IMG/VR virus record: IMGVR_UViG_3300017714_002439
DNA from: a virus
DNA: 64,000 bases
Direction: 5' to 3' (one strand)
Below the pieces are notes generated by a model, which saw only the letters and a program-made list of their open reading frames with translations, did no database searches and was not told the DNA's origin. Each line of letters opens with the position of its first letter. The stretch's first letter is position 1. Made by a program: the position numbers and the translations under genes. Positions 3,001-45,389 of the stretch are shown here, in pieces.

Positions 3001-3333
3001 TTATCAGCTGATATTAAGGCATACGTGCAAGGTTCAAATGTTTCAACAACAACAGGTGGAGATGTAATCGATACCTTTGCTAAAGCAACATATCGTTCTG
3101 CTAAGTATATCATACAAGCAGATGATGGAAACGGAAACTACGAAACACGTGAAGCACTAGTAACACACGATGGAACTACAGCATACATCACAGAATATGC
3201 GATGGTATACACAGGTTCTAACTTAGTAGGTGATGCAAGTGTTAACATGAACGGAGCAAACGTAGAGTTAACCTATACAACTAACTCAGGAACAGCAACA
3301 GTGAAAGTTATTTCAACTTACATTGATGTGTAA
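1..3333 (+). CDS. Long Ala/Thr-rich tail fibre-like protein (5'-partial)
   Basis: Frame 1 is open from base 1 (TTATEIVPAINEIHGEV...), so the TTG at 157 is an internal Leu. Repeated fibre motifs DPAALDSL(T/S)EI, LDTTA..LVGA(I/V)NEVHGEV, DTGDLAEGSNLYYTD and LAGGTMSGDIAMG; beta-rich C-terminal domain. Confidence 0.8.
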   Translation, partial: TTATEIVPAINEIHGEVDAIETRVTSAEGDITTQTGRIDDIISNTDPAALDSLTEIVAAFQAADTNINALITSNTTAISTEATARASADTTLQNNINTEAASRATADTTLQGNIDAEATARVNGDAASVATAAADATTKANAAQAAAIAHADTEDAALIGDATVDGSAGNTIKDRIEDGDAAVTTAFQAADTALDTAYKAADAAIQLQVTANAGDISTNTSDIATNTAAIAQEVTDRTSADNTLQANITAEATTARAAELANSQAITAEATTARAAEAANTTAITNEVTRATGIEAGLRTDVDANTVTGSTNAAAITTESTARAAADATLQANIDTETARVDAILLNADGALDTLKEIGDAFAAADSTLQGLITANGTRLTTNEGDIDTLETEMDNAEGRLDSLEAVVATGGQTLDTTATTLVGAINEVHGEVNTNTTNIGVIGDLDTTASNLVGAVNEVHGEVNANKTAADTDRADIRSEFAAADGVVTAAYIAADVVVTSAFQAADAAQTTALQAYADTAEADAITAAATYTDAEVLTEKTRAEAAELVLTNGLAAEATTARAAEQANAAAAAANLLEITATQAGSGLELNGTYTAHSGSNYIDAGSNLKAVDLLLDAQAKANADAIAGEITDRTTAVAAEATTARAAEAANATAIAAETTRATTAENAIAADVVTNANSIATESSRAQAAEQVNATAIANIISNTDPAALDSLSEIVTAFQSADSTLTGLVNSNATDIATNTAGLAQELVDRAAADTALDTAYKAADTTLQANIDLKLALAGGTMSGDIAMGSNKVTGLANGTANTDAINKGQLDAAISAQDISVYDTGDLAEGSNLYYTDTRSRAAISVTDTAGDGKVSYNNSTGVISIDTDGTVLDLTDVSDTAYTNKDGYVLTVNSNADGMELKDPSLIFTNNFRQTIAGDGTATQFALTQDINQADAMVFVGGVIQDPVTHYTVSNQVITMTSAMPVGTQAVVIAPQVGLSPTLTAGQVTSDKLSADIKAYVQGSNVSTTTGGDVIDTFAKATYRSAKYIIQADDGNGNYETREALVTHDGTTAYITEYAMVYTGSNLVGDASVNMNGANVELTYTTNSGTATVKVISTYIDV

Positions 3334-3488: not shown

Positions 3489-5297
3489 ATGGCACAAAGA
3501 AAATTTATTATAGACGGCGGCTTTCAAACTAGCGATGATTCTTCAATCTCGGCTAATTTGGAAATGACCGGCCACATTCTTCCTACTGTTGACTCTGACG
3601 GAACTACAGGTTACGACTTAGGTTCAACTACGAAGAAATGGCGAGACTTGTTCTTATCACAAGGCTCATTATATGTTGATGGACAAAAAGTCCTTCACTC
3701 AGACTCTGGAACGATCGTCGTATCGGCGGACAACAACCAAGGTCTATTAACAAGAACTACAGGATCAGGTGTTATTGCATTTGCTTCAGATCAACCAATT
3801 TCAGTTCAACAAACGTTACAAATGGGATCAGGTAAGAAAATTACTGATGCAGATGGAACAGCAGTTGGATTTGGCGACAAGATTGATATGGACAGCAATA
3901 AAATGATTAACGTTGGTGATCCTACAGCAGATCAAGATGCAGCAACTAAGGAATATGTTGATGATGAAATTGATGGTTTAGTAAATGGCGCCCCAGGTGC
4001 CCTTGACACACTAAACGAACTTGCTAACGCATTAGGTGATGACTCAAACTTTGCGGCAACAATGACTACAAGTTTGGCAACTAAAGCAGCAACTACTTAT
4101 GTTGATAGTGCAGACGCTAGTGTGGCTTCAGCCGCATCAACAGACGCAACTACTAAAGCAGACGCGGCTCAAACAGCAGCGGCAAGTGATGCAACTACTA
4201 AAGCAAATGCGGCAGAGGCAAATGCAATTGCACACACTAATACACGTGAAGTAGCAATTACATCTGGATATGAATCATATGCAGATACAGCCGAAGCAGA
4301 TGCAATCAGCACAGCGGCAGCAGATGCAACTACTAAAGCAAATGCGGCACAGGCGGCAGCTGAAGCTACAGCATCAGCAGACGCAACTACTAAAGCAGAC
4401 GCGGCAGAGGCAGATGCAATTTCAACTGCGGCAGCTGACGCAACTACTAAAGCAAATGCGGCCCAGGCAGCAGCGGCAACAGATGCAACTACTAAAGCAG
4501 ACGCGGCATTGTCATCAGCTCAATCGTATGCAGATTCTGCCACTTCAAGTGGTGCAGTAACGGCAGCGGCAACAGATGCAACTACTAAAGCAAATGCGGC
4601 TCAGGCAGCGGCAATTAGTGCGGCGGCAACAGATGCAACTACTAAAGCAAATGCGGCTCAGGCAGCGGCTGAAGCCACAGCAAGTTCAGATGCTACTAAC
4701 AAGGCTAACGCGGCACAACAAGCGGCAATTGATGCAGTAACTAATGGTGCAGGCGCATCATTTGATACGCTAAAAGAAATCCAAGACGCAATGGCAACAG
4801 ATGCTGAACTTTCAGCAGCTATTAGTGGATTAACAATTGGTAATGGAACAATGACAGTAACAGCAGGTGCTGGTATGACAGGTGGTGGATCATTCACTGC
4901 TAACCAAACTGGAAACTCAAGTGTTACATTAAATGCAATTGCAGGTAACGGTATTACTGTTAATGCAGACGATATTGCAATGTCAGGTTCATTCACAGGT
5001 GGCTTTACAGCAACTGGTGATATTACAGCTTACTCAGATGAGAGTTTAAAAACTAACATCCAAACAATTGACAACGCTTTAAACAGAGTTGAAGCAGTTC
5101 GCGGTGTTACTTTTGAAAGACTAGAAGACGGTTCAGTATCAACAGGTGTTGTTGCTCAGGAATTACACGCAGTATTACCTGAAGCAGTAAAAACTGATGA
5201 GAACGGTTTACATCATGTTGCTTATGGTAACATTACAGGTCTATTAATTGAAGCGGTTAAAGAACTATCAGCAGAAGTTAAAGAACTTAAAAAGTAA
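3489..5297 (+). CDS. Tail fibre with DATTKA repeats and C-terminal S74 intramolecular chaperone
   Basis: C-terminal YSDESLKTNIQTIDNALNRVEAVRGVTF...GVVAQE...VAYGNITGLLIEAVKEL is the typical S74 chaperone pattern; GALDTLNELANALGDD motif; RBS aaggaa. Confidence 0.85.
   Translation: MAQRKFIIDGGFQTSDDSSISANLEMTGHILPTVDSDGTTGYDLGSTTKKWRDLFLSQGSLYVDGQKVLHSDSGTIVVSADNNQGLLTRTTGSGVIAFASDQPISVQQTLQMGSGKKITDADGTAVGFGDKIDMDSNKMINVGDPTADQDAATKEYVDDEIDGLVNGAPGALDTLNELANALGDDSNFAATMTTSLATKAATTYVDSADASVASAASTDATTKADAAQTAAASDATTKANAAEANAIAHTNTREVAITSGYESYADTAEADAISTAAADATTKANAAQAAAEATASADATTKADAAEADAISTAAADATTKANAAQAAAATDATTKADAALSSAQSYADSATSSGAVTAAATDATTKANAAQAAAISAAATDATTKANAAQAAAEATASSDATNKANAAQQAAIDAVTNGAGASFDTLKEIQDAMATDAELSAAISGLTIGNGTMTVTAGAGMTGGGSFTANQTGNSSVTLNAIAGNGITVNADDIAMSGSFTGGFTATGDITAYSDESLKTNIQTIDNALNRVEAVRGVTFERLEDGSVSTGVVAQELHAVLPEAVKTDENGLHHVAYGNITGLLIEAVKELSAEVKELKK
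4140..4720 (+). repeat. Coding tandem repeats gcaactactaaagca (DATTKA(N/D)AA), 8 exact peptide copies plus 1 variant
   Basis: Counted in the translation and visible at DNA level; boundaries approximate. Confidence 0.85.
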
Positions 5298-6631: not shown

Positions 6632-8206
6632 GTGGCTTTTAAAATTGGTAACAACACAGTAATACATGACGCAGATGCTACAGCGGCTATTGTAACAAAT
6701 AGTGATTTAGATGTATTGCAAATTAATGGAACAGATGTATTAGTCCATGACGGTTCTACAATTACATTAAAAAATGTAACAATAGAAGATGCAGCAGAAA
6801 GCTCAATAAACACTGATAATATTACCGAAGGCTCAACTAATTTATTTTTTACAAATGCAAGAGCTGTTTCAGCCTTAGCGGCAACAACATCTGCATTAGC
6901 TGCCGATATTGTAACAAACACAACAGCTATTACACTCAATACAGGTAACATTAACACTAAGCTACCATTAGCTGGTGGAACATTAACAGGAGCATTAACA
7001 TTAAGTGGTGCACCTACTAGTGCCAATCATGCTTCTACTAAAGCATATGTAGATAGTTCAATATCAAGCGGAGCAATAGCAGACACTGATTCGTTAGCTG
7101 AAGGTTCAACAAATTTATATTACACAGATGCAAGAGTAAACACTTTATTGGGAAGCTATGCCACAGAAGCATATGTAGATCAGGCCGAAGTAGATGCGAA
7201 AGCATATACAGATACACGTGAAACAGCAATTACAACTGCATATGAATCTTATACAGATACACGTGAAACAGCAATTACAACTGCATATGAATCTTATACA
7301 GATACAGCGGTAGCAGGTGTTGTAGATTCAGCACCAGCGGCATTAGATACATTAAACGAACTAGCAGCAGCATTAGGTGATGATCCAAATCTTAGCACAA
7401 CACTAACTACAGCAATAGGAACAAAGGTTGCTAAAGCAGGCGACACTATGACAGGCGCACTTACATTAAGTGGCGCACCAAGTAGTGCCAATCATGCCGC
7501 AACCAAGGCATATGTTGATTCATCAGTATCAGGTGGAACAGGTGCATTAGACACAGACGATATTACAGAAGCCGGAAATTTATATTACACAGATGTAAGA
7601 GCACAAGCAGTTTCAATTAATAACGTAGTAGAAGATACAAGCCCACAGCTAGGTGGATTGTTAAGTGCAAATAGTTTTGATATTGATATGGGCACAAATA
7701 TTATTACTGATGCAAAAGTTGGATTCTGGGATGCGGCGTTTAGTTGGGGCAATCATGCAAGTGCTGGTTACTTAACAAGCTATACAGATACTAATACAAC
7801 ATATACAGCAGGCAACGGATTAACATTAAGTGGAACAGAGTTTCTAATGAGTGGTAACTACACAGGTAGCTTTACAGCATCTGGTGATGTTACAGCATAC
7901 TCAGACGAAAGACTAAAAAGTGATATAACAACAATCGAAGATGCACTAAACAAAGTAAAAAATCTGCGAGGAGTTATGTTTGATAAAACAGATACACTAA
8001 GCAGTGAGCTAAAACGCTCAACTGGAGTTATAGCACAAGAAGTAGAAAAAGTATTACCAGAGGTAGTGCATAACGATATCAATACAGGTTATAAATCTGT
8101 AGCCTACGGAAATATAGTAGGTGTTCTTATCGAAGCTATTAAAGAACAGCAAGAACAAATTGACAAATTAAAACATGACATTGAGTTCTTAAAAGGTATC
8201 AGATAA
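6632..8206 (+). CDS. Tail fibre with C-terminal S74 chaperone
   Basis: GTG start with ggag RBS; three TD.(L/I).E..NL(Y/F)(Y/F)T..R motifs; PAALDTLNELAAALGDD; C-terminal YSDERLKSDITTIEDAL...GVIAQEVEKVLPEVV. Confidence 0.85.
   Translation: MAFKIGNNTVIHDADATAAIVTNSDLDVLQINGTDVLVHDGSTITLKNVTIEDAAESSINTDNITEGSTNLFFTNARAVSALAATTSALAADIVTNTTAITLNTGNINTKLPLAGGTLTGALTLSGAPTSANHASTKAYVDSSISSGAIADTDSLAEGSTNLYYTDARVNTLLGSYATEAYVDQAEVDAKAYTDTRETAITTAYESYTDTRETAITTAYESYTDTAVAGVVDSAPAALDTLNELAAALGDDPNLSTTLTTAIGTKVAKAGDTMTGALTLSGAPSSANHAATKAYVDSSVSGGTGALDTDDITEAGNLYYTDVRAQAVSINNVVEDTSPQLGGLLSANSFDIDMGTNIITDAKVGFWDAAFSWGNHASAGYLTSYTDTNTTYTAGNGLTLSGTEFLMSGNYTGSFTASGDVTAYSDERLKSDITTIEDALNKVKNLRGVMFDKTDTLSSELKRSTGVIAQEVEKVLPEVVHNDINTGYKSVAYGNIVGVLIEAIKEQQEQIDKLKHDIEFLKGIR
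7205..7306 (+). repeat. Perfect in-frame 45-bp tandem duplication (YTDTRETAITTAYES x2, 2.27 copies)
   Basis: tatacagatacacgtgaaacagcaattacaactgcatatgaatct at 7205-7249 and 7250-7294, plus 12 further nt. Confidence 0.95.
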
Positions 8207-10822: not shown

Positions 10823-11215
10823 TTTCTTTAAAAAATCCTTTGATTTACACTGTATCTTTGCACCCGGATGTAATGGTTTAGGCCACTTGCCTATATCAAC
10901 CCAAGCAAACCCATCGCTTTCATCATTTAAACTAGGTATAAACTCATTACTAACAGTAACAACAAAACTGTTATATATAAATCTACCATTGCTACTAGTA
11001 AATTTACTTATTGGAATAGTTTTTACTGATTTAGGCCATTTGCCTATTTCTTCTTCAACTTCTCGTTTTAGTGTTTCAATGGGTCTTTCGTCTTTTTCAC
11101 TTTTGCCACCAAAAAACCCCCAAGTTTTTGGATGAGTAACATTGTTACTTCTAAGTTGTAATAAAATTCTTCCTGTGTCTATGCTTAAAAAGATACAGCC
11201 ACTTGCTTCTATCAT
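10796..11215 (-). CDS. NUDIX hydrolase
   Basis: Nudix box GGKSEKDERPIETLKREVEEEIG. Confidence 0.9.
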   Translation of the reverse strand: MIEASGCIFLSIDTGRILLQLRSNNVTHPKTWGFFGGKSEKDERPIETLKREVEEEIGKWPKSVKTIPISKFTSSNGRFIYNSFVVTVSNEFIPSLNDESDGFAWVDIGKWPKPLHPGAKIQCKSKDFLKKIKTIYANA

Positions 11216-12582
11216 TATAAATAGATTCTCCAGAATCCTGCATTGTATACAGCCTCATAGCTATTAACCCATTCTTTACCATTCCACTCTAATTGATCTT
11301 GGGTTGTTAGGTTAAGGCAATGATGTTTAGTTGATTGATTTGCACTAGCATTAAATACTATTGACCAACCACTGCCGTCAAATTCTACAATATCATATTT
11401 ATTAGCAGTTGATAATCCATTCCAATTTGAACTAACTGGAATTGAATCCATTAATAAGTATCTAACTCCTACATTATTTGGAGTAGGAACAGTTCCATCT
11501 CCTGGATAGTTTACCATACCATTTATTACACCGTCAATTGGTTGTAATGTATTAGTTGGCAGTGTTGTTTGGTCTATAGTTACTGATAATTTTTGAGGAT
11601 TATTTGGATGCTCAAATAGTTTTCCTATAATATCATTATCATTATCACCTGGATCTGAACTTTTTCTTAGTCTAATTTGACTGATACCGTTACGTAATAC
11701 TCCAAATTTCTTTAAATCTTCTTCCCATGTAATTTGTTGATCACTTGAATCTAAGTTAGATCCATCAAGAGCAAGTAATGTTACTTCATTATCCTCATAT
11801 CTAATTTTTCTGTTTTCAAATGTAACAACAGTATATTCTAGTGTAGATTTATCAAATGATTCATTTTCTCTAAAACTATCTAAGTCTGCGTCATCTAAAT
11901 TATACATTTGATTAATAATTGTGTGTATAAGTTTTTGTTGTTTAACCTTTGCAGGTGGATTAATTAATACAGGCATATCAAATCCTATTGATGCAACATC
12001 AATAATATCATCTATGCTACTACCTATACTTCTAGTGCTCCATGTAGTGTTTACCATTTCTACATAACTCAATGAACTCCAGTCATATGGATTACTTGAG
12101 GTTTTAATATCAAGTGTTGGATTGAATAATACAAGTATTTGTTCCATTAGTTGTAATTTTTGTTCTGTGTTTGATGTCCATATGTCACAGTTCATTGATA
12201 ACTTATAAGTAACTGGGTTATGTCGTTCAATGGTATATCTATTACCTGGTTCGTTTGAATACTCACCTGTAGTATCATCATATTTCTTTTCTATGACTTG
12301 AACCTTATCTACATGAGATTGTAATGTTCTTAGTTCCGGCGCCATTGCTAAATTAGTTACATAACAACTGATAAAAGGAACGGTGTTAACAATGTTTTCA
12401 CTGTTCTCTCTAGTTATGTGTGCTGCCATACGATTAATATCACCATAACGAACAGGAACTAATTGCATTTGTGCTAGTCCATTTTCGTCTTTGCCCATTT
12501 GCACACTAAATCCACTAAACAGTCTTATAAACTGTTGAATGTATCTTCTAATCTGCCTGTCGTAAAAAAATTGTTGTGCCAT
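11215..12582 (-). CDS. Tail completion/sheath stabiliser, T4 gp15-like
   Basis: N-terminus FFYDRQIRRYIQQFIRLFSGF and VPVRYG resemble gp15; adjacent to the gp14-like gene. Confidence 0.65.
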   Translation of the reverse strand: MAQQFFYDRQIRRYIQQFIRLFSGFSVQMGKDENGLAQMQLVPVRYGDINRMAAHITRENSENIVNTVPFISCYVTNLAMAPELRTLQSHVDKVQVIEKKYDDTTGEYSNEPGNRYTIERHNPVTYKLSMNCDIWTSNTEQKLQLMEQILVLFNPTLDIKTSSNPYDWSSLSYVEMVNTTWSTRSIGSSIDDIIDVASIGFDMPVLINPPAKVKQQKLIHTIINQMYNLDDADLDSFRENESFDKSTLEYTVVTFENRKIRYEDNEVTLLALDGSNLDSSDQQITWEEDLKKFGVLRNGISQIRLRKSSDPGDNDNDIIGKLFEHPNNPQKLSVTIDQTTLPTNTLQPIDGVINGMVNYPGDGTVPTPNNVGVRYLLMDSIPVSSNWNGLSTANKYDIVEFDGSGWSIVFNASANQSTKHHCLNLTTQDQLEWNGKEWVNSYEAVYNAGFWRIYL

Positions 12583-19478: not shown

Positions 19479-21854
19479 ATGGCAAATCTTGTTTCACCTG
19501 GAGTTCAGGTAACAATCACAGACGAATCAGTTTACGGTCCAACCGGAACAGGCACAGTTCCAATGATGTTCATTGCAACTGGCGAGGACAAGGTTGACCC
19601 GACTGGCACAACGGCTATAGCAGCACAGACTGTTAAGTCAAAAGCAGGTAAACCCGTATTAGTAACATCACAACGTGAATTAACACAAAACTTTGGTAAT
19701 GTGGATTTTCATAAAGTAGGCGGCTCTGTCGTTCAAGGTGATGAGACTAACGAATATGGTTTATTGGCAGCATATTCATTTTTAGGACAAAGCTCAGCAG
19801 CATATATTGTTAGAGCAGATGTTGATTTAACATCTTTACGTCCACAAAGCTCAGCACCAACAGGTCCTGCAGCTAATAACACTTATTGGGTTAACCCAAA
19901 TAGTTCTAACTGGGGGCTGTTTAAATACACTTCAGCAGCAACAGGTTGGGAAGCGGTTACTCCAAAAGTAGAAATTACAGACGGTCAAGGCACACCATCA
20001 GCAACATCAGTTGCAGGCGATTACTTAGTAGAAGTAGCCGTAGGTGCAGCTGAAACCGAAATTAAGTATTGGAAAGCACACTCTACACCAGGCGCAGGCG
20101 CATGGGTAACAGCAGCAATTGATACATTTGCACCACACTACAGTGAACCAAGTTCACCAAGTGCAGGTGATACATGGGTTAAAACAACTACACCAGGTAG
20201 CGGTTTTGATTTAGCTATTTCACAATACACAACAACAGCAGGTTCATTTGTAAATCAAACAGTTGATTATGCAGATGATGCCGCACCAGACGGAACTACA
20301 GGCGACATTCCTCAAAATGGATCAGCCGGCGTAGCTAGAACATTAATTGAAGGTGATATGTGGTTAGATCACGACACTGACAAACTTGTTCTTAAAGTTT
20401 ACACTTCAGGTGCATGGGCAGATGTTGTTGTAACTGGTTCAAACACAGAGCCAACAGGCACACCAGTAAATGGAACTGTTTGGCATGATGGCGACATCAA
20501 CGAATTAGCTATCTACGAAGTTGAAGATGATAGCGGAACACAAAAATGGAAACGTGCAACAAACGTTTCATATGCAACATCGGCACCAGCACCAGGTTCA
20601 GCAGGCGACTATTGGATTGATACTGATGCAGCCGGATACCCATTAATTTATCGTTCAAACGGTAGTGCATGGGTAGTAAAAGATAACGCAGACCAATCAA
20701 CATCAAGCGGTGTTGTATTTGGTGACATTACTGCTAATGATACAACAGCAGGACAATTTGAAGCAACTCTATTAGCAGGTGCTCCAAATCCATTGTTGCA
20801 TCCAGCAGGAACAACTGGTATTAATATGTGTCGTTCTGGTGGAACAGTTCGTAAATACGATACATCATTAACAACTACTTGGAAATGGCGTAACCATGCT
20901 CCAAACCAAACAGACGGTTCGGGATCATTTGGTCGTCACGCCCAAAGAGCAGTAGTAGTAGCGGCTATGCAAGCAAGTGCAAGTGCTTCAGAAATACTTG
21001 AAGAAACAGTAGCATTTAGCTTAATTGCAGCTCCTGGATATCCAGAAATGACTGACGAAATGGTAACAATAAACAGTAACAGAAATGAAACAGGTTTTGT
21101 TATTATTGATGCTCCATTACGTGTAAGTCCAACAGAAGCAGTTAATTGGGTTAACGGCGTAGGCGTAAGTGCAAACGGCGAATCAGGATTAGCTACTAAG
21201 AATACTTACAGTGCAGTATACTATCCGCATGCATTAACAACAAATCCAGCAACAGGAGATAACGTTGTTGCTCCAGCATCACACATTGCATTATATACAT
21301 ATGCATACAGTGATAACGTGAGCTTCCAATGGTTCTCACCAGCAGGTTTAACTCGAGGCCAAGTTCAAAACGCTTCAGGTGTTGGATATTTAGATGCAGA
21401 GGATGAATTTAAATCAGTTTCACTTACACAAGGAAACAGAGATACTATGTATGCAGCTAAAATGAACCCTATCGCAAGATTTCCTGCAGAAGGTGTTGTA
21501 GTGTTTGGTCAAAAAACTTTACACCCATCAGCAAGTGCATTAGATAGAGTTAACGTTGCTCGTTTAACAGCTTACTTACGTGAAAGATTTGCAGTTATTG
21601 CCAGACCTTTCTTGTTTGAGCAAAACGACGAAACTACTAGAAGAAATGCCAAAGGAGCTTTTGATGGTTTCTTACAAGGTATCTTATCTTCTAGAGGAGT
21701 TTACGACTTCGCAGTTGTGTGTGATGAAACTAACAACACACCAGCAAGAATTGACGCAAATGAATTTTGGATTGACGTGGCAATTGAGCCAACTAAATCA
21801 GCAGAGTTTATTTACATTCCAATTAGAATTGTAAACACTGGCGAATTAAGCTAA
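19479..21854 (+). CDS. Contractile tail sheath protein (gp18-like)
   Basis: LVSPGVQVTITDES N-terminus; C-terminal WFSPAGLTRG, NPIARFPAEGVVVFGQKTL, LDRVNVARL, FLFEQNDETTR, VVCDETNNTPARIDANEF, PTKSAEFIYI. Confidence 0.95.
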   Translation: MANLVSPGVQVTITDESVYGPTGTGTVPMMFIATGEDKVDPTGTTAIAAQTVKSKAGKPVLVTSQRELTQNFGNVDFHKVGGSVVQGDETNEYGLLAAYSFLGQSSAAYIVRADVDLTSLRPQSSAPTGPAANNTYWVNPNSSNWGLFKYTSAATGWEAVTPKVEITDGQGTPSATSVAGDYLVEVAVGAAETEIKYWKAHSTPGAGAWVTAAIDTFAPHYSEPSSPSAGDTWVKTTTPGSGFDLAISQYTTTAGSFVNQTVDYADDAAPDGTTGDIPQNGSAGVARTLIEGDMWLDHDTDKLVLKVYTSGAWADVVVTGSNTEPTGTPVNGTVWHDGDINELAIYEVEDDSGTQKWKRATNVSYATSAPAPGSAGDYWIDTDAAGYPLIYRSNGSAWVVKDNADQSTSSGVVFGDITANDTTAGQFEATLLAGAPNPLLHPAGTTGINMCRSGGTVRKYDTSLTTTWKWRNHAPNQTDGSGSFGRHAQRAVVVAAMQASASASEILEETVAFSLIAAPGYPEMTDEMVTINSNRNETGFVIIDAPLRVSPTEAVNWVNGVGVSANGESGLATKNTYSAVYYPHALTTNPATGDNVVAPASHIALYTYAYSDNVSFQWFSPAGLTRGQVQNASGVGYLDAEDEFKSVSLTQGNRDTMYAAKMNPIARFPAEGVVVFGQKTLHPSASALDRVNVARLTAYLRERFAVIARPFLFEQNDETTRRNAKGAFDGFLQGILSSRGVYDFAVVCDETNNTPARIDANEFWIDVAIEPTKSAEFIYIPIRIVNTGELS

Positions 21855-35661: not shown

Positions 35662-35686
35662 AAAAGGCCCTTAACGGGCCTTTTTT
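35662..35686. terminator. Bidirectional terminator
   Basis: aaaaggccc-ttaac-gggcctttt between convergent genes. Confidence 0.8.
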
Positions 35687-36801
35687 AATTGCTCTGCTAA
35701 TTCAGGATTGTAATCTTCCAGCCGTGTTCCATACATACGATCTGATATTTTTATTAAATCAATAAATTCCTGCCATTTCTTTGGATTATACTTTCTTTCT
35801 TGGCGTCCTTGAAAGTAACTTCGAACTTCAGGACAATCGTTTGATTCTAATATCCACGCTTCATACCAATCTGGTGCATGACAAACACTAAGATCACCTT
35901 CTCCCCAATTACTAAATGTTTCAAGTTCGTTTTGTTTGAACCACTGTATAGTATCAGTATAATTATTTAAATTAAGCAACGTAAATGTATTTAAAAATGT
36001 AAACCAATTAATATTGTCAAACGTAGATTTTATTGTGTTTGCATTTTCAATAATAGTTTCAAAGTTACTGCCCCATCGTTGATAATCGTTGTATTTGTAA
36101 ATTCCATCACAGCTAATTATAAAATTTAATTCTTTTACACTGTGCATTATATCTAGGGTTTCTCCCTTGGGTAAAATAGTAGCATTAGTATTATATAGTA
36201 GACTTAAATTCTGCTTGTTTGGAAACTTCTTTAAGAATGGTAAATGATGTTTTGATAACAACGGTTCACCACCAACAAACTTAATTTGTTCTACATGACT
36301 TAGATCAAATTCATCAAGTAAATCTGGGTCAAACACCCAGGTTGGATGCACATTCTTACCTAACAATTGATCTCGACGCCGTAATTTAGTTGAATTAAAA
36401 CTGCTACACATCTTGCATTCTAGGTTGCATGTGTTGTCTAGACTTACTTCAATATACTTTGTATGGAAGAATTCTTGTGTTAAACTTTCTCTGGCTATAT
36501 CGTATGAATCATTTGCACTTGTTCGCATTGACTTTCCGTGTATTTTGTCATCTTCATAACAGTTTATACATCCTTTAACAGGTATTCCTGCCAGCATCTC
36601 ACTTCTAATTTGACGGAATGCACTTTGATTCATGCGTTCAAGCAACTGTTTGCCATCTTCAATTTCACTGTCATCTTGTCGCATGTTATCCCATTCTTCT
36701 TGATTGAATTTACAACACGGACTTACACCACCGGTTTGTCCATCATAACTTGGATCTAACCGTAAATGCACCCAAGGAAGACTACAAAAATAATTATTCA
36801 T
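35671..36801 (-). CDS. Radical SAM protein with N-terminal Twitch/SPASM-like domain
   Basis: CNLECKMC (CxxxCxxC), FVGGEPLL, YNTNAT; N-terminal CSLPW...PCC...CINC. Confidence 0.9.
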   Translation of the reverse strand: MNNYFCSLPWVHLRLDPSYDGQTGGVSPCCKFNQEEWDNMRQDDSEIEDGKQLLERMNQSAFRQIRSEMLAGIPVKGCINCYEDDKIHGKSMRTSANDSYDIARESLTQEFFHTKYIEVSLDNTCNLECKMCSSFNSTKLRRRDQLLGKNVHPTWVFDPDLLDEFDLSHVEQIKFVGGEPLLSKHHLPFLKKFPNKQNLSLLYNTNATILPKGETLDIMHSVKELNFIISCDGIYKYNDYQRWGSNFETIIENANTIKSTFDNINWFTFLNTFTLLNLNNYTDTIQWFKQNELETFSNWGEGDLSVCHAPDWYEAWILESNDCPEVRSYFQGRQERKYNPKKWQEFIDLIKISDRMYGTRLEDYNPELAEQLKKAR

Positions 36802-36826: not shown

Positions 36827-37546
36827 ATGTCAAAAATAGCATTTATAGGTGATAGTTTTTCTGCATATAAACAAGCAGGTCAATTTGAAAATCATTGGTC
36901 ATGGAAATTAGCACAAAAATATCCACAACATACATATATAAATTATGCCACGGGCGGAATAGGGCATAACTATTATCAGTATGCTTTACTTGATGCAAAA
37001 ATGAATGGAGTAGATATTGTATTTGTTAGCAGAACATACAACCATCGTGTAGGCTTTCTTATTAATGATTATGAATTCAAATTTAATAAAGAAGCTCTAA
37101 CAGATAATTACACACTAGCATGTCTACAAGGTGACAGGTATGTATATTATTGTGGTTCTTCTGTATCTGGTGCTAAACATTTTTTACAAAGGTCATCAAC
37201 ATTTTTAAATTTAAGTAAATCTTTAAATCAGAAAATAGTAGATATATTACAGAATAAGAGTGTTTCGTTAACTAGTCAACAATACAATGATAAATGGTTT
37301 GATAACATAAAGGATTTATATAATTTTAAACACATAATACCATTAGAACTAATGAATATCACAGACGATAATGCTTTTAAACAAATGGCATCAGCACATG
37401 GTGTTGATAATTGTGAAATTGATGCTGACATGTTTAACTCTGGATTAATAGTATCTTTAACTGATAATCATTTGTCTCCCAAAGGTAATGATTGGGTTCT
37501 AGAAAATTATATTTTGACACTTGACACTATTAAGATACTAGAATAA
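36827..37546 (+). CDS. SGNH/GDSL hydrolase-like protein
   Basis: IAFIGDSFS block I, NYATGGIG block II, DNHLSPKGN block V. Confidence 0.65.
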   Translation: MSKIAFIGDSFSAYKQAGQFENHWSWKLAQKYPQHTYINYATGGIGHNYYQYALLDAKMNGVDIVFVSRTYNHRVGFLINDYEFKFNKEALTDNYTLACLQGDRYVYYCGSSVSGAKHFLQRSSTFLNLSKSLNQKIVDILQNKSVSLTSQQYNDKWFDNIKDLYNFKHIIPLELMNITDDNAFKQMASAHGVDNCEIDADMFNSGLIVSLTDNHLSPKGNDWVLENYILTLDTIKILE

Positions 37547-39905: not shown

Positions 39906-40019
39906 ATGTATTGGGCATGGTATAGCAAATTAAGAAAACAAGGATATCCTTGGTGGAATTGTTTGTTATGGGCTCGATATAATAATAAGCATTACGACAT
40001 AGATGGAAATTATAAATGA
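39906..40019 (+). CDS. Unannotated 37-aa Trp/Tyr-rich peptide
   Basis: MYWAWYSKLRKQGYPWWNCLLWARYNNKHYDIDGNYK*; fills the gap exactly and its TGA overlaps the next ATG (ATGA 40016-40019). Confidence 0.5.
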   Translation: MYWAWYSKLRKQGYPWWNCLLWARYNNKHYDIDGNYK

Positions 40020-40474
40020 GTAAGTTAAACATCAAAGAAGAAATGAGATCTATTGATCAAAAAGATCGAGCTTGGTATGATAGTCTTACAGATGATGAGA
40101 AAAAGAAACTTGGCTTATGGTTATTAATGCGTTATACAAGTAATGCAAGCGGCAAGCATGCAGAACATTATTTAGAATGGACTAATGAAGCAGTTAATGT
40201 GCATTTTAATACAATAAGAAAACACCCACAGTTGCAATATCAATTGCTACAACTGGTTGGAATTGGTTCTACGGTATTCCATCCTTGGATAGCACCAGGT
40301 AAAGCGGGTAAGAAAAATAAACTACAGAGCTGGTTTGTAGAAAATTATTCACATCTAAATGATGATGAGATTGATATTATGTTAAGCAGTAGCAAAGATG
40401 AAATTAAAGCATTGCTACGTGAATACGGATTAAAGGACAAAGAAATAAAAGATCTCATTGGTAAACTTAAATGA
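40016..40474 (+). CDS. Clamp-loader small subunit-like (T4 gp62-like)
   Basis: WLLMRYTS...HPQLQYQLL...FHPWI pattern, size and position in the replication module. Confidence 0.5.
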   Translation: MSKLNIKEEMRSIDQKDRAWYDSLTDDEKKKLGLWLLMRYTSNASGKHAEHYLEWTNEAVNVHFNTIRKHPQLQYQLLQLVGIGSTVFHPWIAPGKAGKKNKLQSWFVENYSHLNDDEIDIMLSSSKDEIKALLREYGLKDKEIKDLIGKLK

Positions 40475-41151
40475 CAGAAGTTTTTAAATGCGAATATTGT
40501 AATAAAGTATTTAAGCGTGAAAGCACTTTGTCTGTGCATATGTGCGAACGTAAACGCAGATACATGGCCAAAGAAGATAAAGACGTGCAACTTGCATTTA
40601 GATCATATCAATTGTTTTATCGTATAGGAACAAATTCAAAAAGTGCTAAATCATTTAATGACTTTGCATCAAGTCAGTATTATACTGCATTTGTAAAGTA
40701 TGCAAAATATTGTATAGAATTACGTGTAGATGATGTTCCTGAATATACACGTTGGTTATTAAAAAACCAAGTAAGAATTGATAGATGGACAAGCGATAGA
40801 AATTTTGCGTCTTGGATTAAAACAAGATTAAAAACAGAAAGTCCAGATAGAGCTATTGAAAGAACAGTTTTATTCTTAAAAGAATGGAGTAATGAATCTG
40901 GATATAATTGGAACGAATACTTCCGCACAGTGGCGCCAAATCTTGCTGTATTTCACATTTGTAGTGGTAAGATTAGTCCATGGATAGTATATGGAAGTTC
41001 GCAAGCACAAGGGCTATTAGACAAGCTCTCAAGTGAACAAATAAAGATGGTAACAGACTACATAGACCCATATCATTGGCAAAGAGTAATGAAAACAAAT
41101 GCTGAAGATTTTACATGGGTAGAAGGAATTTTAGAAGAGGCAAATTTATGA
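40471..41151 (+). CDS. Zinc-finger protein (C2H2/C2HC-type N-terminus)
   Basis: FKCEYCNKVFKRESTLSVHMC = C-x2-C-x3-F-x5-L-x2-H. Confidence 0.75.
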   Translation: MTEVFKCEYCNKVFKRESTLSVHMCERKRRYMAKEDKDVQLAFRSYQLFYRIGTNSKSAKSFNDFASSQYYTAFVKYAKYCIELRVDDVPEYTRWLLKNQVRIDRWTSDRNFASWIKTRLKTESPDRAIERTVLFLKEWSNESGYNWNEYFRTVAPNLAVFHICSGKISPWIVYGSSQAQGLLDKLSSEQIKMVTDYIDPYHWQRVMKTNAEDFTWVEGILEEANL

Positions 41152-41732
41152 TAGTAAACACAGACATTGACATTGATGTAGCAGATAGAAATAAGTTATT
41201 AGATTTAATTAAACATACACCTGCAATGATTAATGACAATGGTAGACGTAAGAAACACAACACTGGTGTATATTTCCATGAAATGCCAAGTGATCCATTT
41301 ACAGGGTTAAGCACAATAGATCATAAAGAAGCAGAAACCAAAGGTTATTTTAAATTAGATGTGTTAAATGTAAGTGTTTACAAAGATGTTGAAAGCTATG
41401 AACAATTAGATAAATTACTTGCAATGGAACCAATGTGGGATTTGCTTGAACACAAAGAAGTAGTTGAAAAACTATTTCATATACATGCACATTATGGTAT
41501 TGTAAGTAAAATGAAACCTACTAGTGTTGAAGAACTAGCGGCTGTGCTGGCAATTATTAGACCAGCTAAACGTGGGTTGTTAGGAAAAGATTGGAATACA
41601 GTATTTGCTACAGTATGGGATAAGCCTACAGATGGAACATATTATTTTAAAAAAGCACATGCAATAAGTTATGCAATGGCTATTGTATTACAGCTTAATA
41701 TGTTGGTTATGGGTTTTTCTTTAAAAGACTAA
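41148..41732 (+). CDS. Miniature DnaE/PolIII-alpha-like catalytic core (194 aa)
   Basis: Start 41148 (ATGA overlap). TDIDID, KHNTGV, GYFKLDVL, LAAVLAIIRP and YFKKAHAISYA are collinear with DnaE PDIDxD, HAGG, GLxKFDFLG, ALxRPG and FNKSHxxAY. Confidence 0.75.
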   Translation: MIVNTDIDIDVADRNKLLDLIKHTPAMINDNGRRKKHNTGVYFHEMPSDPFTGLSTIDHKEAETKGYFKLDVLNVSVYKDVESYEQLDKLLAMEPMWDLLEHKEVVEKLFHIHAHYGIVSKMKPTSVEELAAVLAIIRPAKRGLLGKDWNTVFATVWDKPTDGTYYFKKAHAISYAMAIVLQLNMLVMGFSLKD

Positions 41733-42078
41733 TATTACGTCTTTTAATTCTTTTAGTAATACTATCACTTAATCTTACTTCAGGACCTGCAACCACTTCC
41801 ATTTGTTTTATATTAAAACTTTGGCTAGTATAACTAAACGGCCATCTATTTAAAAGTGCTATATTAATAGGTAACTTTCTATTTGTCTCCCACCACCATT
41901 CATCACCAAGTGCTAAAAACTTTTGTCTTTCAGGATTGGTTTGAATTCTATCGTAAACATACATAGTAGCAATTTGGTTATCAATATTTTGCATAATTCC
42001 CAGATACTCATTGCCTGCATATTCAATTACAGTCAAAAACGGAAATTCTTCTAATAATGTTTGATATTTTTTTATCAT
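41707..42078 (-). CDS. Hypothetical protein
   Basis: Probable start at 42078 (MIKKYQ), 8 nt downstream of minus-strand AATAAATA at 42094-42087. Confidence 0.6.
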   Translation of the reverse strand: MIKKYQTLLEEFPFLTVIEYAGNEYLGIMQNIDNQIATMYVYDRIQTNPERQKFLALGDEWWWETNRKLPINIALLNRWPFSYTSQSFNIKQMEVVAGPEVRLSDSITKRIKRRNISLLKKNP

Positions 42079-42117
42079 TGTATATATATTTATTTTAAAT
42101 TTTTTCTGTGGTTTTTG

Positions 42118-42125
42118 CATAAATA
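42118..42125 (+). promoter_or_regulatory. Late promoter
   Basis: CATAAATA upstream of 42145. Confidence 0.6.
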
Positions 42126-42144
42126 CATACACAGGAGAACATGA

Positions 42145-42978
42145 ATGTCAAATTACGCAACCACTTATAATATCAATCAAACAGGCGACCTTTACGCCGT
42201 TGATGCCACTAGTAGCAAAGCAGGACTAGGCAACTATGCTTCATCCACTGGCACTACTATAAACGCTCCTGTTAATTACAGGTTCTTAAAGCTATTTACC
42301 GGTTTAGATAATGAGTTCTTTTTTTACATTAAGAACATAGATCGTAAACCAATACAGTTGCAAGGACATACTATTACTGCTAATGTAGTTAATAGAGAAA
42401 CCCAGGCAAAATTATTATCAAAGAAATGTCAAATTGTTGACTATGATGAAGGCAAAGTTAAACTGGTTATTACATCCGGTGAAATGGCTGCAATTCAAAA
42501 CGGCTTCCTTGATCTAGTATTTACCTATGTAAATTCTCAAGGTTTAAATCTTCCATTATTTGTTGATCAAAATCTTAGACCAAATTATACAATAGAAGTA
42601 AGTAACCAAACACAAAGTATTCCACTACTATCAGCAGAAACAACTACATTTAATACTAGAGTAGAAGGAACAGACACATACTATTATAGTGGACACCTAC
42701 CAGGACCCGGTGCAAAAAACAAAGTTAATGGAATGGTTACTATAGCAGTATACACCACTAACTTTACAGGTAACTTTTTTATACAGGGTGCATTAGAAGA
42801 AAATCCAGCAGAATCCGATTGGTTTAACATTATATTAGGAACTTACACGGAAGAACATTACCCATATATCAATAGATCTGGAATTGATCCATGGACATTC
42901 AGAACTAATATTAAATATATTAGAGCAAGATTCACACAAACACAAGGAACACTTGACAAAGTCATCATAAGAGTGTAG
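42145..42978 (+). CDS. Probable virion structural protein (beta-sandwich, baseplate-associated)
   Basis: Late promoter, RBS aggag, beta-strand-rich. Confidence 0.55.
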   Translation: MSNYATTYNINQTGDLYAVDATSSKAGLGNYASSTGTTINAPVNYRFLKLFTGLDNEFFFYIKNIDRKPIQLQGHTITANVVNRETQAKLLSKKCQIVDYDEGKVKLVITSGEMAAIQNGFLDLVFTYVNSQGLNLPLFVDQNLRPNYTIEVSNQTQSIPLLSAETTTFNTRVEGTDTYYYSGHLPGPGAKNKVNGMVTIAVYTTNFTGNFFIQGALEENPAESDWFNIILGTYTEEHYPYINRSGIDPWTFRTNIKYIRARFTQTQGTLDKVIIRV

Positions 42979-42981
42979 TAT
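42953..42981 (+). promoter_or_regulatory. sigma70 promoter of primase-helicase (predicted leaderless mRNA)
   Basis: TTGACA-N17-TAGTAT-N6-ATG. Confidence 0.7.
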
Positions 42982-42987
42982 ATACAC

Positions 42988-43995
42988 ATGAGCTTAATGA
43001 TCGACTACGTTAGAAATCTGGTTCCGGTTAACTGGAAACAAAATCCAAGTGGCTGGACTTCTGGCAATTGTCCTATGTGTATAACAAATGGACAATCAAG
43101 ACCAGATACACGTGGACGAGGTGGTTTTCATTTTGAAGATGATAAGTTTCAATATCATTGTTTTAATTGTCATTATAAAACAGGGTTTTCGCCCGGTAAT
43201 AAAATTAATGATAGATTAAAAAAACTATTAGTGCAATTTGGTGCAGATCCTACACAAGTGCAACGTTTACAACTAGAGTTGTTGCGTGAACAAGATATTG
43301 CACAAACATTAATGGTGCAAGAGCGTAGAAAGAAACTAGTAATTGATTGGCCTACAGTAGCATTGCCAGACAATGCTAAACCTTTTATGGAACATACACC
43401 AACACCTGACTGGACAGAAGCAGTAACATATCTAACAGATAGAGGATTTGATATAACAGATCCTAGGCTGATGTATAGCCCTGCTAAATTGCCGGCTAGA
43501 ATGTTCAAACGTTTTGTAGTTCCATTTTATTATAAAGGTAATGTTGTAGGATATACAGCAAGATGGATAGGTAATCCACCAGATAAAATGCCAAAATATT
43601 TTAATCAACAACCACCTAAAAATTTTGTGTATGGGTTAGATAGACAGCATGCTGACAAAGAAATTGTTATATTGACAGAAGGCCCATTAGATGCTATAAT
43701 AACAGATGGAATCAGTGCAGGCACTAATACTATTAGCGATGAACAAGCAGACGTTATTTTAAGTTTAAACAAACAAATTGTTGTGTTACCTGATGCCGAT
43801 AAGGCAGGCATGCAAATGGTTAACGCAGCAGTTAAGTATGGTTGGAGTGTTGCATTTCCTGAATGGGATAATTGCAATGATGCCGGCGATGCCTTAACAA
43901 AATACGGTAGATTATTTACAGTGCGTAGTATATTAAATAGTGCAGTAAGTAACCCAACAAAAATACAAGTTTTAGGAAGGAATTATTGTAAATGA
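42988..43995 (+). CDS. DNA primase (gp61/DnaG-like)
   Basis: Zn ribbon CPMC...HCFNC; TOPRIM LTEGPLDA and PDADKAG. Confidence 0.9.
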   Translation: MSLMIDYVRNLVPVNWKQNPSGWTSGNCPMCITNGQSRPDTRGRGGFHFEDDKFQYHCFNCHYKTGFSPGNKINDRLKKLLVQFGADPTQVQRLQLELLREQDIAQTLMVQERRKKLVIDWPTVALPDNAKPFMEHTPTPDWTEAVTYLTDRGFDITDPRLMYSPAKLPARMFKRFVVPFYYKGNVVGYTARWIGNPPDKMPKYFNQQPPKNFVYGLDRQHADKEIVILTEGPLDAIITDGISAGTNTISDEQADVILSLNKQIVVLPDADKAGMQMVNAAVKYGWSVAFPEWDNCNDAGDALTKYGRLFTVRSILNSAVSNPTKIQVLGRNYCK

Positions 43996-45389
43996 GTGAA
44001 CAAAAAGAATACACACTAGAACTACAAAAATTATTTGTAGAGTTTTTGGCACATGATCAAGATTTATTTGTTCGTGTAAATGGTATATGTAATTCAGAAT
44101 ACTTTACAAGGGAATTACGTAAAACAGTAGAGTTCATTCAAGACCATGCAAACGAATATGGTGCATTACCAACACATGAGCAGATTGTAGCAACAACTGG
44201 GTTGGAATTACAAAGTTTAAAAGATATTGATCCTAGACATCACGATTGGTTTATAGACGAGTTTGAAACATTTTGTAAACATAAGGCATTAGAAAGTGCT
44301 ATATTAACTTCAACTGATTTACTTGAACAAGGTGAGTTTGGCGCAGTTGAGAAAATGATTAAAGATGCTGTAGGTATTGGACTTGCTAAACACATGGGAA
44401 CAGATTATTGGGAAAACCCAATGGAACGCATCGAACGTGTTCGTAACCAACGAGGTGGAACAAGCACAGGTTGGACTGAAATTGATAAAAAACTATATGG
44501 TGGATTTAATAGAGGCGAATTAAATATATTTGCTGCACCGTCAGGCGGTGGTAAGAGTTTATTTTTGCAGAACTTAGCATTAAACTGGGCATTAGAAGGA
44601 CATAATGTATTATATATTAGTTTAGAGCTTAGTGAAGAACTATGCAGTATGCGTCTTGATAGTATGTTAACAGGATACAACACAAAAGAAGTATTTAAAA
44701 ATGCAGAAGATGTTGGATTAAAAGTAGGAGCAATTAGTAAAAAAGCAGGCAACTTACAAATTGTGCAAATGCCTAATGGTGTAACAATAAATGATTTAAA
44801 TAGTTATATGAAAGAGTTTGAAGTAAAGAATAATGTTAAATTAGATGCAGTATTACTTGATTATTTAGACTTAATGATGCCAGCACAACGTAAAGTTCCG
44901 CCAAGTGACTTGTTTATTAAAGATAAATTTGTATCTGAAGAGTTACGTAACTTTGCAGTGGAAAAAGATTTGCTATTTGCAACCGCATCTCAGCTAAACA
45001 GAGCGGCAGTAGAAGAAGTAGAGTTTGATCACTCTCATATTGCAGGCGGTATTAGTAAAATTCAGACAGCTGATAACGTAATTGGTATTTTTACAAGCAC
45101 AGCAATGCGTGAACGTGGAAGATATCAAATTCAATTTATGAAAACACGTAGTAGTGCAGGTGTTGGACAAAAAGTTGATTTAGCATTTGATATTGCGGGC
45201 TTACGTATAACAGATCTGCCAGAAGATGAAGAACAAACACCTATGCATCAACCTAGTGCAATGATGGATAAAATAAAAAGAAATACAAATGTAACGCACC
45301 AAGAAAAAACTATTGCAGAAGAGAGCATTATTGAAGACACTGACGCTACCGACAGATTACGCAATATGTTGAAAAAAGTCAACAAATAA
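43992..45389 (+). CDS. Replicative helicase (gp41/DnaB-like)
   Basis: APSGGGKS, YISLEL, LLDYLDL, TASQLNR, FMKTR. Confidence 0.92.
   Translation: MSEQKEYTLELQKLFVEFLAHDQDLFVRVNGICNSEYFTRELRKTVEFIQDHANEYGALPTHEQIVATTGLELQSLKDIDPRHHDWFIDEFETFCKHKALESAILTSTDLLEQGEFGAVEKMIKDAVGIGLAKHMGTDYWENPMERIERVRNQRGGTSTGWTEIDKKLYGGFNRGELNIFAAPSGGGKSLFLQNLALNWALEGHNVLYISLELSEELCSMRLDSMLTGYNTKEVFKNAEDVGLKVGAISKKAGNLQIVQMPNGVTINDLNSYMKEFEVKNNVKLDAVLLDYLDLMMPAQRKVPPSDLFIKDKFVSEELRNFAVEKDLLFATASQLNRAAVEEVEFDHSHIAGGISKIQTADNVIGIFTSTAMRERGRYQIQFMKTRSSAGVGQKVDLAFDIAGLRITDLPEDEEQTPMHQPSAMMDKIKRNTNVTHQEKTIAEESIIEDTDATDRLRNMLKKVNK

Follow-up and report, generated by a model that had tools for sequence, protein, structure and literature searches.

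The 64,000-nucleotide stretch of viral DNA analyzed here (IMG/VR record IMGVR_UViG_3300017714_002439, referred to below as the window) carries a gene at positions 41148 to 41732 on the plus strand whose 194-amino-acid (aa) product is a true, strongly compressed homolog of the family C polymerase (DnaE/PolC) core made up of palm and fingers. Considering all lines of evidence together, we regard it as likely that this open reading frame (ORF) encodes the C-terminal subunit (C-unit) of a two-piece minimal DNA polymerase III (Pol III) alpha typical of Rak2-like (group 2.2) phages, which works with a GRGS-bearing unit provided in trans (N-unit) and most likely serves as a second polymerase. An earlier note made from the sequence alone (here, the original prediction) had taken the protein for a minimal polymerase in its own right. 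Its observation was confirmed and its interpretation partly supported: the gene appears to encode one subunit of a split enzyme that is DnaE derived, selected, and catalytic looking.

The motifs named in the original prediction (DID, KLD, AIIRP, and FKKAHAISYA) are all present and collinear with DnaE, and profile, fold, and a fused relative agreed on their assignment. The strand T5-D6-I7-D8-I9-D10 (41160 to 41177, plus strand, as are the motifs that follow) was assigned via the fused relative P0180, which aligned unbroken with residues 319 to 417 of the Escherichia coli alpha subunit; D6 and D8 correspond to the catalytic residues D401 and D403, and D10 corresponds to D405. The third catalytic aspartate, D71, is part of K69-L70-D71 (41352 to 41360), equivalent to K553-F554-D555 in a hidden Markov model (HMM) alignment to E. 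coli alpha residues 539 to 641. Profile alignment further equated the finger motif I137-R138-P139-A-K-R (41556 to 41573) with F638-R639-P640-G641 and, in a second stretch, the finger helix F167-K-K-A-H171-A-I-S-Y175-A (41646 to 41675) with F756-N-K758-S-H760-S-A-A-Y764-A.

HMMER was run exhaustively against 1.84 billion cluster representatives (clusters at 50% identity) and returned 429 C-unit matches at E values up to 0.001; an alignment of 93 relatives with 28 to 80% identity (A2) was built from this search. The A2 profile paired K69/D71 with E. coli K553/D555, R138/P139 with R639/P640, and F167 to A176 with F756 to A765. D6, D8, K69, D71, R138, and P139 were present in 93 of 93 sequences, so the earlier statement that the three catalytic aspartates (D6, D8, and D71) are retained held for all of these relatives. 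D10 and H171 were found in 91 of the 93 sequences each and K141 and Y175 in 83 each; position 168 was occupied by lysine in 85 and by arginine in 6. H171 is the equivalent of E. coli H760, which has been considered a sugar-discriminating residue; if this is right, it would favor deoxynucleoside triphosphates (dNTPs). The C-unit has three metal-binding aspartates, K69, and fingers that are shortened but keep the RP and FKKxH..Y motifs.

When compared with 177,635 PDB sequences, the A2 profile matched only Pol III alpha chains (E = 3.9e-5). A single-sequence phmmer search of the C-unit against the PDB yielded a chance match only (an NAD-dependent deacetylase, E = 0.61). Within PHROGs, the C-unit matched phrog_11778, annotated as "DNA polymerase," with an E value of 1.1e-67 (residues 4 to 187 on profile positions 6 to 192 of 197), and phrog_405, a full-length DnaE family, was a weak second match (E = 1.2e-5). 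Structure prediction, which had been suggested as a check, pointed in the same direction. The AlphaFold2 model calculated from A2 reached a predicted local distance difference test score (pLDDT) of 95.0 and a predicted template modeling score (pTM) of 0.86, and the top 13 rows retrieved with this model by VIA-align were all family C enzymes (Z of 6.2 to 9.9), with the next unrelated fold at a Z of 3.5. The best match was Taq Pol III alpha (3e0d_A, residues 458 to 838; Z of 9.9, root mean square deviation of 3.9 Å, 191 residues aligned); PolC (3f2b, residues 968 to 1296) gave a Z of 9.5 and E. coli alpha (4jom, residues 397 to 781) a Z of 8.9. Foldseek also returned family C polymerases in all of its top 16 rows. 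Sequence identity between the C-unit and bacterial family C structures, as judged from the structural alignment, was 14 to 20%.

The frame between 41148 and 41732 is free of stops. The 194-aa reading was favored over a 205-aa frame starting at 41115, since the ATG at 41148 shares bases with the TGA that ends the zinc finger ORF upstream (ATGA, 41148 to 41151), a GAGG is located 7 nt 5' of this ATG, and the same start methionine was shared by 14 of 15 metagenomic homologs in a first alignment. Start and stop are both conserved. The ratio of nonsynonymous to synonymous substitution rates (dN/dS) of the window gene was 0.02 to 0.20 against 18 IMG/VR relatives, and over 158 pairs the median was 0.144 and the maximum 0.229. 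Moreover, a capped word-seeded search recovered at least 7,858 clusters of C-units at 90% identity, and almost all had lengths of 190 to 206 aa. These comparisons support purifying selection on the C-unit and argue against a decayed fragment, as the original prediction had maintained. A decaying remnant of a captured host dnaE might be suspected from the fact that the protein covers only about one-sixth of DnaE. Yet dN/dS values of 0.02 to 0.23, which are not near 1, the at least 7,858 length-conserved clusters at 90% identity and 429 at 50%, the conserved start and stop, and a synteny kept from marine phages to 121Q and Phosso already refute this explanation, which has practically no probability left. 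On the basis of phrog_11778, AlphaFold2, VIA-align, and dN/dS, the feature at 41148 to 41732 (plus strand) was annotated as the C-unit of a putative split minimal Pol III alpha-like enzyme (Mg2+ and template binding).

The chain begins at the DxD strand and does not include the GRGS triphosphate-binding loop. In DnaE, this loop lies ∼40 residues upstream of the DxD strand within the same palm, where it binds the triphosphate. The 194 residues cover E. coli residues 397 to 781, of which ∼190 have been deleted. No PHP, thumb, HhH/clamp-binding, OB, or tau-binding domain was found in the C-unit. For the PHP, clamp-binding, HhH, and OB domains this had been noticed before, and searches for PHP (PF02811) and HHH_6 (PF14579) were likewise negative for 5 complete related genomes, whereas the positive controls turned up in 14 and 11 control genomes, respectively. 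Matches to DNA_pol3_finger in the complete relatives fell solely inside C-unit genes. Thus, the protein resembles DnaE (E. coli and Taq Pol III alpha; Mycobacterium tuberculosis DnaE1) and PolC in its polymerase beta-like palm, its DxD and KxD aspartates, and its RP and FNKSH-type motifs, but unlike them it comprises 194 aa instead of more than 1,000, leaves the GRGS part of the palm to a second polypeptide, and has lost the thumb and approximately half of the fingers.

This second polypeptide was identified in the relatives of the window phage. A search of complete relatives with PF07733 gave exactly one match each above the curated cutoff, at profile positions ∼16 to 100 (the GRGS region), and this match was a separate ORF of ∼170 to 180 aa. 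Eight of 8 genomes carried the N-unit: the 7 complete cultured relatives (121Q, Phosso, Atu_ph07, MIJ3, RsoM2USA, Slicko01, and GAP32) and G001, an IMG/VR contig of 205 kb with a C-unit 71% identical to that of the window. Its gene was located between ∼4 kb (RsoM2USA) and 224 kb (Phosso) from the C-unit gene, with a distance of 117 kb in G001. The earlier statement that no adjacent ORF supplies the missing parts is therefore correct for adjacent ORFs, but a distant ORF supplies the GRGS palm segment in the relatives. All 37 aligned N-units contain an invariant G-x-G-R-G-S-S-V and end at a conserved ...EFLK boundary. In E. coli alpha, the counterpart of the N-unit spans residues 320 to 392; since ...EFLK coincides with residue 392 and the C-unit starts at about residues 397 to 400, only a short linker before P400-D401 was removed by the break.

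Three proteins of 375 to 376 aa from different assemblies (P0180, P0272, and P0273; 78 to 81% mutually identical) contain both units in one frame, joined by a 9-residue linker. A fusion gene is located at 1066 to 2193 (plus strand) of contig L086, which is very AT rich (25% GC, compared to 35.5% in the window). These proteins represent a classic fusion link between the N- and C-unit families, and such single chains may be the simplest construct for biochemical or structural work.

For complex prediction, the cognate N- and C-units of G001 were modeled in three runs along with three controls, using alignments that we supplied ourselves. The pair scored an ipSAE of 0.89 in 3 of 3 runs, and the best of the 3 controls scored 0.00. 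The ipSAE mark applied is reached by 58 of 80 solved complexes and by 2 of 110 mismatched pairs, counts that are only rough in the present case because of the use of our own alignments. The runs shared at least 93% of their contacts, the pLDDT of the partner was at least 88, and the predicted interface comprised 173 to 181 contacts, with residues 129 to 142 of the N-unit (GRGS loop) placed against residues 5 to 13 (DxDxD strand) and 168 to 171 (KKAH) of the C-unit. The model thus supports binding of the N-unit to the C-unit.

Against this background, we asked how well the 194-aa protein alone would qualify as a complete minimal family C polymerase, as the original prediction had it. All three aspartates and the finger motifs are united in its one chain, and the AlphaFold2 model folds confidently by itself. 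However, the GRGS loop is absent from this chain and, in 8 of 8 relatives, belongs to a second protein, which amounts to the split dnaE that the original prediction had named as speaking against its view; in addition, natural fusions join the two units, and their predicted interface is large (173 to 181 contacts). A complete stand-alone polymerase is thus very unlikely.

Several side observations were made on the distribution of the two units. In the Ralstonia phage RsoM2USA, the N-unit gene lies ∼4 kb upstream of the C-unit gene on the same strand, compared to 31 to 224 kb for the other genomes and 11 kb in Slicko01, so that the two genes are not always distant. The Alishewanella phage Slicko01 (141,431 bp, below the 200-kb jumbo threshold) encodes a family B DNA polymerase (PolB) as well as a C-unit and an N-unit, whose genes are 11 kb apart. 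Since both units occur in this 141-kb genome, the split mini-Pol III is not restricted to phages with jumbo genomes. The word-seeded search retrieved 1,698 N-unit clusters and at least 7,858 C-unit clusters, counts that are not comparable; the gap may be a search artifact, or N-units may be more divergent or missing in some lineages. Four further genomes (G002, G003, G004, and G005) had no N-unit match, but are fragments of 19 to 60% completeness.

Genes for a split DnaE are also known from cyanobacteria, where two distant genes encode intein-split halves that are rejoined by protein trans-splicing to the full-length enzyme. The phage system is similar in that a family C catalytic subunit originates from two distant genes. 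Unlike the cyanobacterial halves, phage N-units stop at ...EFLK and C-units start with Met-x-x-x-(T/P)-D-I-D without any intein-sized extra, and the site of the break (∼E. coli residues 393 to 399) differs from that of the cyanobacterial split. Because neither unit carries intein-sized sequence, assembly of the phage N- and C-units would be noncovalent.

Based on the relatives, the fusions, and the model, we propose that the distantly encoded ∼170-aa protein would supply in trans the GRGS loop together with the initial portion of the palm and that the N- and C-units would assemble into one active site of a polymerase beta-fold nucleotidyltransferase. The heterodimer would most likely add dNTPs in a templated manner, as a second, nonprocessive DNA polymerase beside the family B replicase, with short-patch synthesis, primer extension, and repair as candidate roles. 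Should it be active, this two-chain enzyme of ∼360 aa would be the smallest known core of a family C polymerase. It would also reveal what catalysis strictly requires of DnaE, a question that bears on the evolution of the bacterial replicase.

A number of findings weigh against this proposal. The HMM comparison foreseen in the original prediction had a divided outcome: the A2 profile did match Pol III alpha (E = 3.9e-5, see above), but the Pfam DnaE models stayed below threshold on the C-unit, with no match of PF07733 (DNA_pol3_alpha) to the 194-aa protein and only 13.5 bits (E = 0.047) for PF17657 (DNA_pol3_finger), for which the cutoff is 22. The E values of Foldseek were marginal (best, 1.9e-3). 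Approximately 89 residues are gone between the DxD strand and the strand of the third aspartate (KxD), the site of the DnaE thumb, and ∼87 residues are gone between the RP and FNKSH motifs, which makes efficient binding of a primer-template doubtful. More generally, weak DNA binding would be expected from a protein without thumb, PHP, clamp-binding, HhH, and OB domains unless other phage proteins help. The passing score of the predicted complex may reflect the likeness of the pair to solved single-chain DnaE and PolC structures and is not a measurement of binding. No N-unit was detected in the 64-kb window itself (tblastn with two N-units; best E = 0.6). Finally, we found no biochemistry in the literature for any member of the split mini-Pol III family.

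The chief rival to a templated polymerase is a nontemplated transferase activity. In this case, the heterodimer of N- and C-units would still be an active nucleotidyltransferase, but would function as a terminal transferase or tailing enzyme, as a primer-independent oligonucleotide synthase, or as a nucleotide-signal synthase. Such an activity is conceivable because the thumb and all duplex- and clamp-binding modules of DnaE have been lost. Other transferases of the polymerase beta fold use the catalytic core alone. On the other hand, the RP and FKKxH..Y motifs, which DnaE employs beside the incoming nucleotide and the template, are near-invariant, the gene belongs in every relative examined to a conserved replication module, with primase and helicase genes beside it, and every structural match was a replicative family C enzyme. 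We therefore consider a transferase unlikely, even if it deserves to be kept in mind.

An enzymatically inert derivative of DnaE, which might inhibit the host Pol III holoenzyme, act as its decoy, or serve as a scaffold of the phage replisome, was also considered. No activity has ever been reported, and a protein without PHP, clamp-binding, or tau-binding parts could compete solely for DNA or nucleotides. The metal-binding triad and K69, conserved in 93 of 93 relatives, are a requirement of catalysis, however, and not of a decoy. Moreover, the hosts are diverse (Sinorhizobium, Agrobacterium, Pseudomonas, Escherichia, and marine hosts), and conservation of this kind is unexpected of a host-specific inhibitor. 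A noncatalytic function is thus highly improbable, and a catalytic heterodimer with polymerase activity remains the preferred reading.

The genomic context of the C-unit gene is that of a T4-like replication module close to primase and helicase genes, as had been recognized in the original prediction. Upstream, in order, are genes for a gp32-like single-stranded DNA-binding protein, RecA, a clamp-loader-type ATPase, a UvsW-like helicase, two conserved unknowns, and the zinc finger protein; downstream follow a small opposite-strand ORF, a structural protein homolog, a primase, and a DnaB-like helicase. This gene order was also found in 121Q, GAP32, MIJ3, Atu_ph07, Phosso, and Slicko01. PolB was identified in 5 of 5 relatives tested, so that the check for a family B polymerase proposed earlier revealed coexistence of the two enzymes in these relatives. 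Among the window ORFs scanned (the ten largest, 8 around the C-unit, and 10 further ones), no PolB was found. The C-unit is very abundant, and the phages in whose replication module it always occurs already have a family B replicase of their own.

The zinc finger neighbor (40471 to 41151, plus strand; 226 aa) consists of an N-terminal C2HC/C2H2 motif (C-x2-C-x12-H-x-C) and a helical body and matched phrog_11058 (E = 5e-64) and zf-C2H2 (E = 2.7e-5). Its gene was located directly upstream of the C-unit gene in 76 of 80 IMG/VR loci and in 7 of 8 other relatives, and its stop often overlaps the C-unit start. The AlphaFold2 model had a pLDDT of 89.7, but no convincing fold match was obtained: the best Foldseek E value was 0.37, and the best Z in the wide VIA search was 5.1, within the noise range for helical proteins. 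The helicase loader gp59 of T4, matched by its C-terminal domain with a Z of 3.6 and 96 aligned residues, is a lead at most. An Atlas search with the zinc finger protein returned unnamed viral clusters only. A "YGSS" stretch of this protein had been considered as the supplier of the GS loop and was dropped once canonical GRGS units were found in other genes.

As a phage counterpart of eukaryotic Pol alpha, the N- and C-units might constitute a dedicated hand-off polymerase that lengthens the primers made by primase before synthesis passes to the family B replicase, and the zinc finger protein might be the missing DNA-binding module. Such a role would fit the fixed position beside the primase and helicase genes as well as the absence of thumb and clamp-binding parts; we view it as a tentative and rather unlikely specification of the second polymerase proposed above.

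Nearly all sampled words of the window stretch were present in at least 11 studies of marine or viral metagenomes, and its source is an uncultured marine phage. A megablast search with positions 40000 to 44000 against 50,697 phage records gave no match; hence, this phage has no close cultured relative. Its C-unit is 99% identical to IMG/VR contigs and 39 to 55% identical to the copies in Phosso, MIJ3, Atu_ph07, 121Q, GAP32, and others.

Both the family and its split nature have been described previously, and the window gene is another member. Iyer, Anantharaman, Krishnan, Burroughs, and Aravind (2021, Viruses 13:63; PMC7824862, sections 3.4.1 and 3.5) reported a split minimal Pol III alpha in group 2.2 (Rak2-like) jumbo phages and suggested that it could work together with PolB in the synthesis of one strand or in repair. 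A Pol III alpha subunit had been annotated in Atu_ph07 by Attai et al. (2018), who recorded it for the majority of Rak2-like phages, and Weinheimer and Aylward (2022) reported PF07733 for 52% of one marine jumbo phage cluster. The PA5oct omics paper does not mention the gene. In line with a guess of the original prediction, annotations of short DnaE-like ORFs are on record in phrog_11778 ("DNA polymerase"), in GenBank, and in Iyer et al. (2021). The window C-unit shows no essential difference from the published group 2.2 C-units, with which it shares family, neighborhood, split point, and, in the relatives, coexistence with PolB; it differs in coming from an uncultured marine phage. Added here are the natural fusions, the controlled complex prediction, the dN/dS estimates, and the finding that a 141-kb phage carries both units.

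Further features were noted around the C-unit gene. Short RNA sequencing contigs of low depth from four marine libraries of two studies matched positions 40483 to 42051 at 95 to 100% identity, where carry-over of DNA is possible; three of them span the junction of the zinc finger and C-unit genes, which is compatible with cotranscription without proving transcription. The small ORF on the minus strand at 41707 to 42132 (phrog_11637, E = 1.7e-31; listed at 141 aa) shares 26 nt with the 3' end of the C-unit gene, and the position of this ORF is kept in G001, Phosso, Atu_ph07, MIJ3, 121Q, and GAP32. Between the C-unit and primase genes, 42145 to 42978 (plus strand) encodes a homolog of a "virion structural protein" (phrog_14467, E = 1.9e-13). 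This is an odd site for a structural gene; the position is kept in G001, MIJ3, and Phosso, and genes at the same position are annotated as structural in 121Q and GAP32. A radical SAM-like protein (35671 to 36801, minus strand; PF04055, E = 1.3e-6, just below the cutoff) is encoded between the clamp-loader-type ATPase and the UvsW-like helicase. The ORF at 36827 to 37546 was considered as a DnaQ-like "polymerase exonuclease subunit," as found at the same position in 121Q, and rejected, having no similarity to it (E = 0.42) and no Pfam match. At the beginning of the window, a very long ORF of at least 1,058 aa (157 to 3333, plus strand), open at its 5' side from base 1 and with no PHROG match at E values up to 1e-5, is followed by two tail fiber-like genes (3489 to 5297 and 6632 to 8206). 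Two genes of the tail sheath family are located at 11215 to 12582 (minus strand) and 19479 to 21854.

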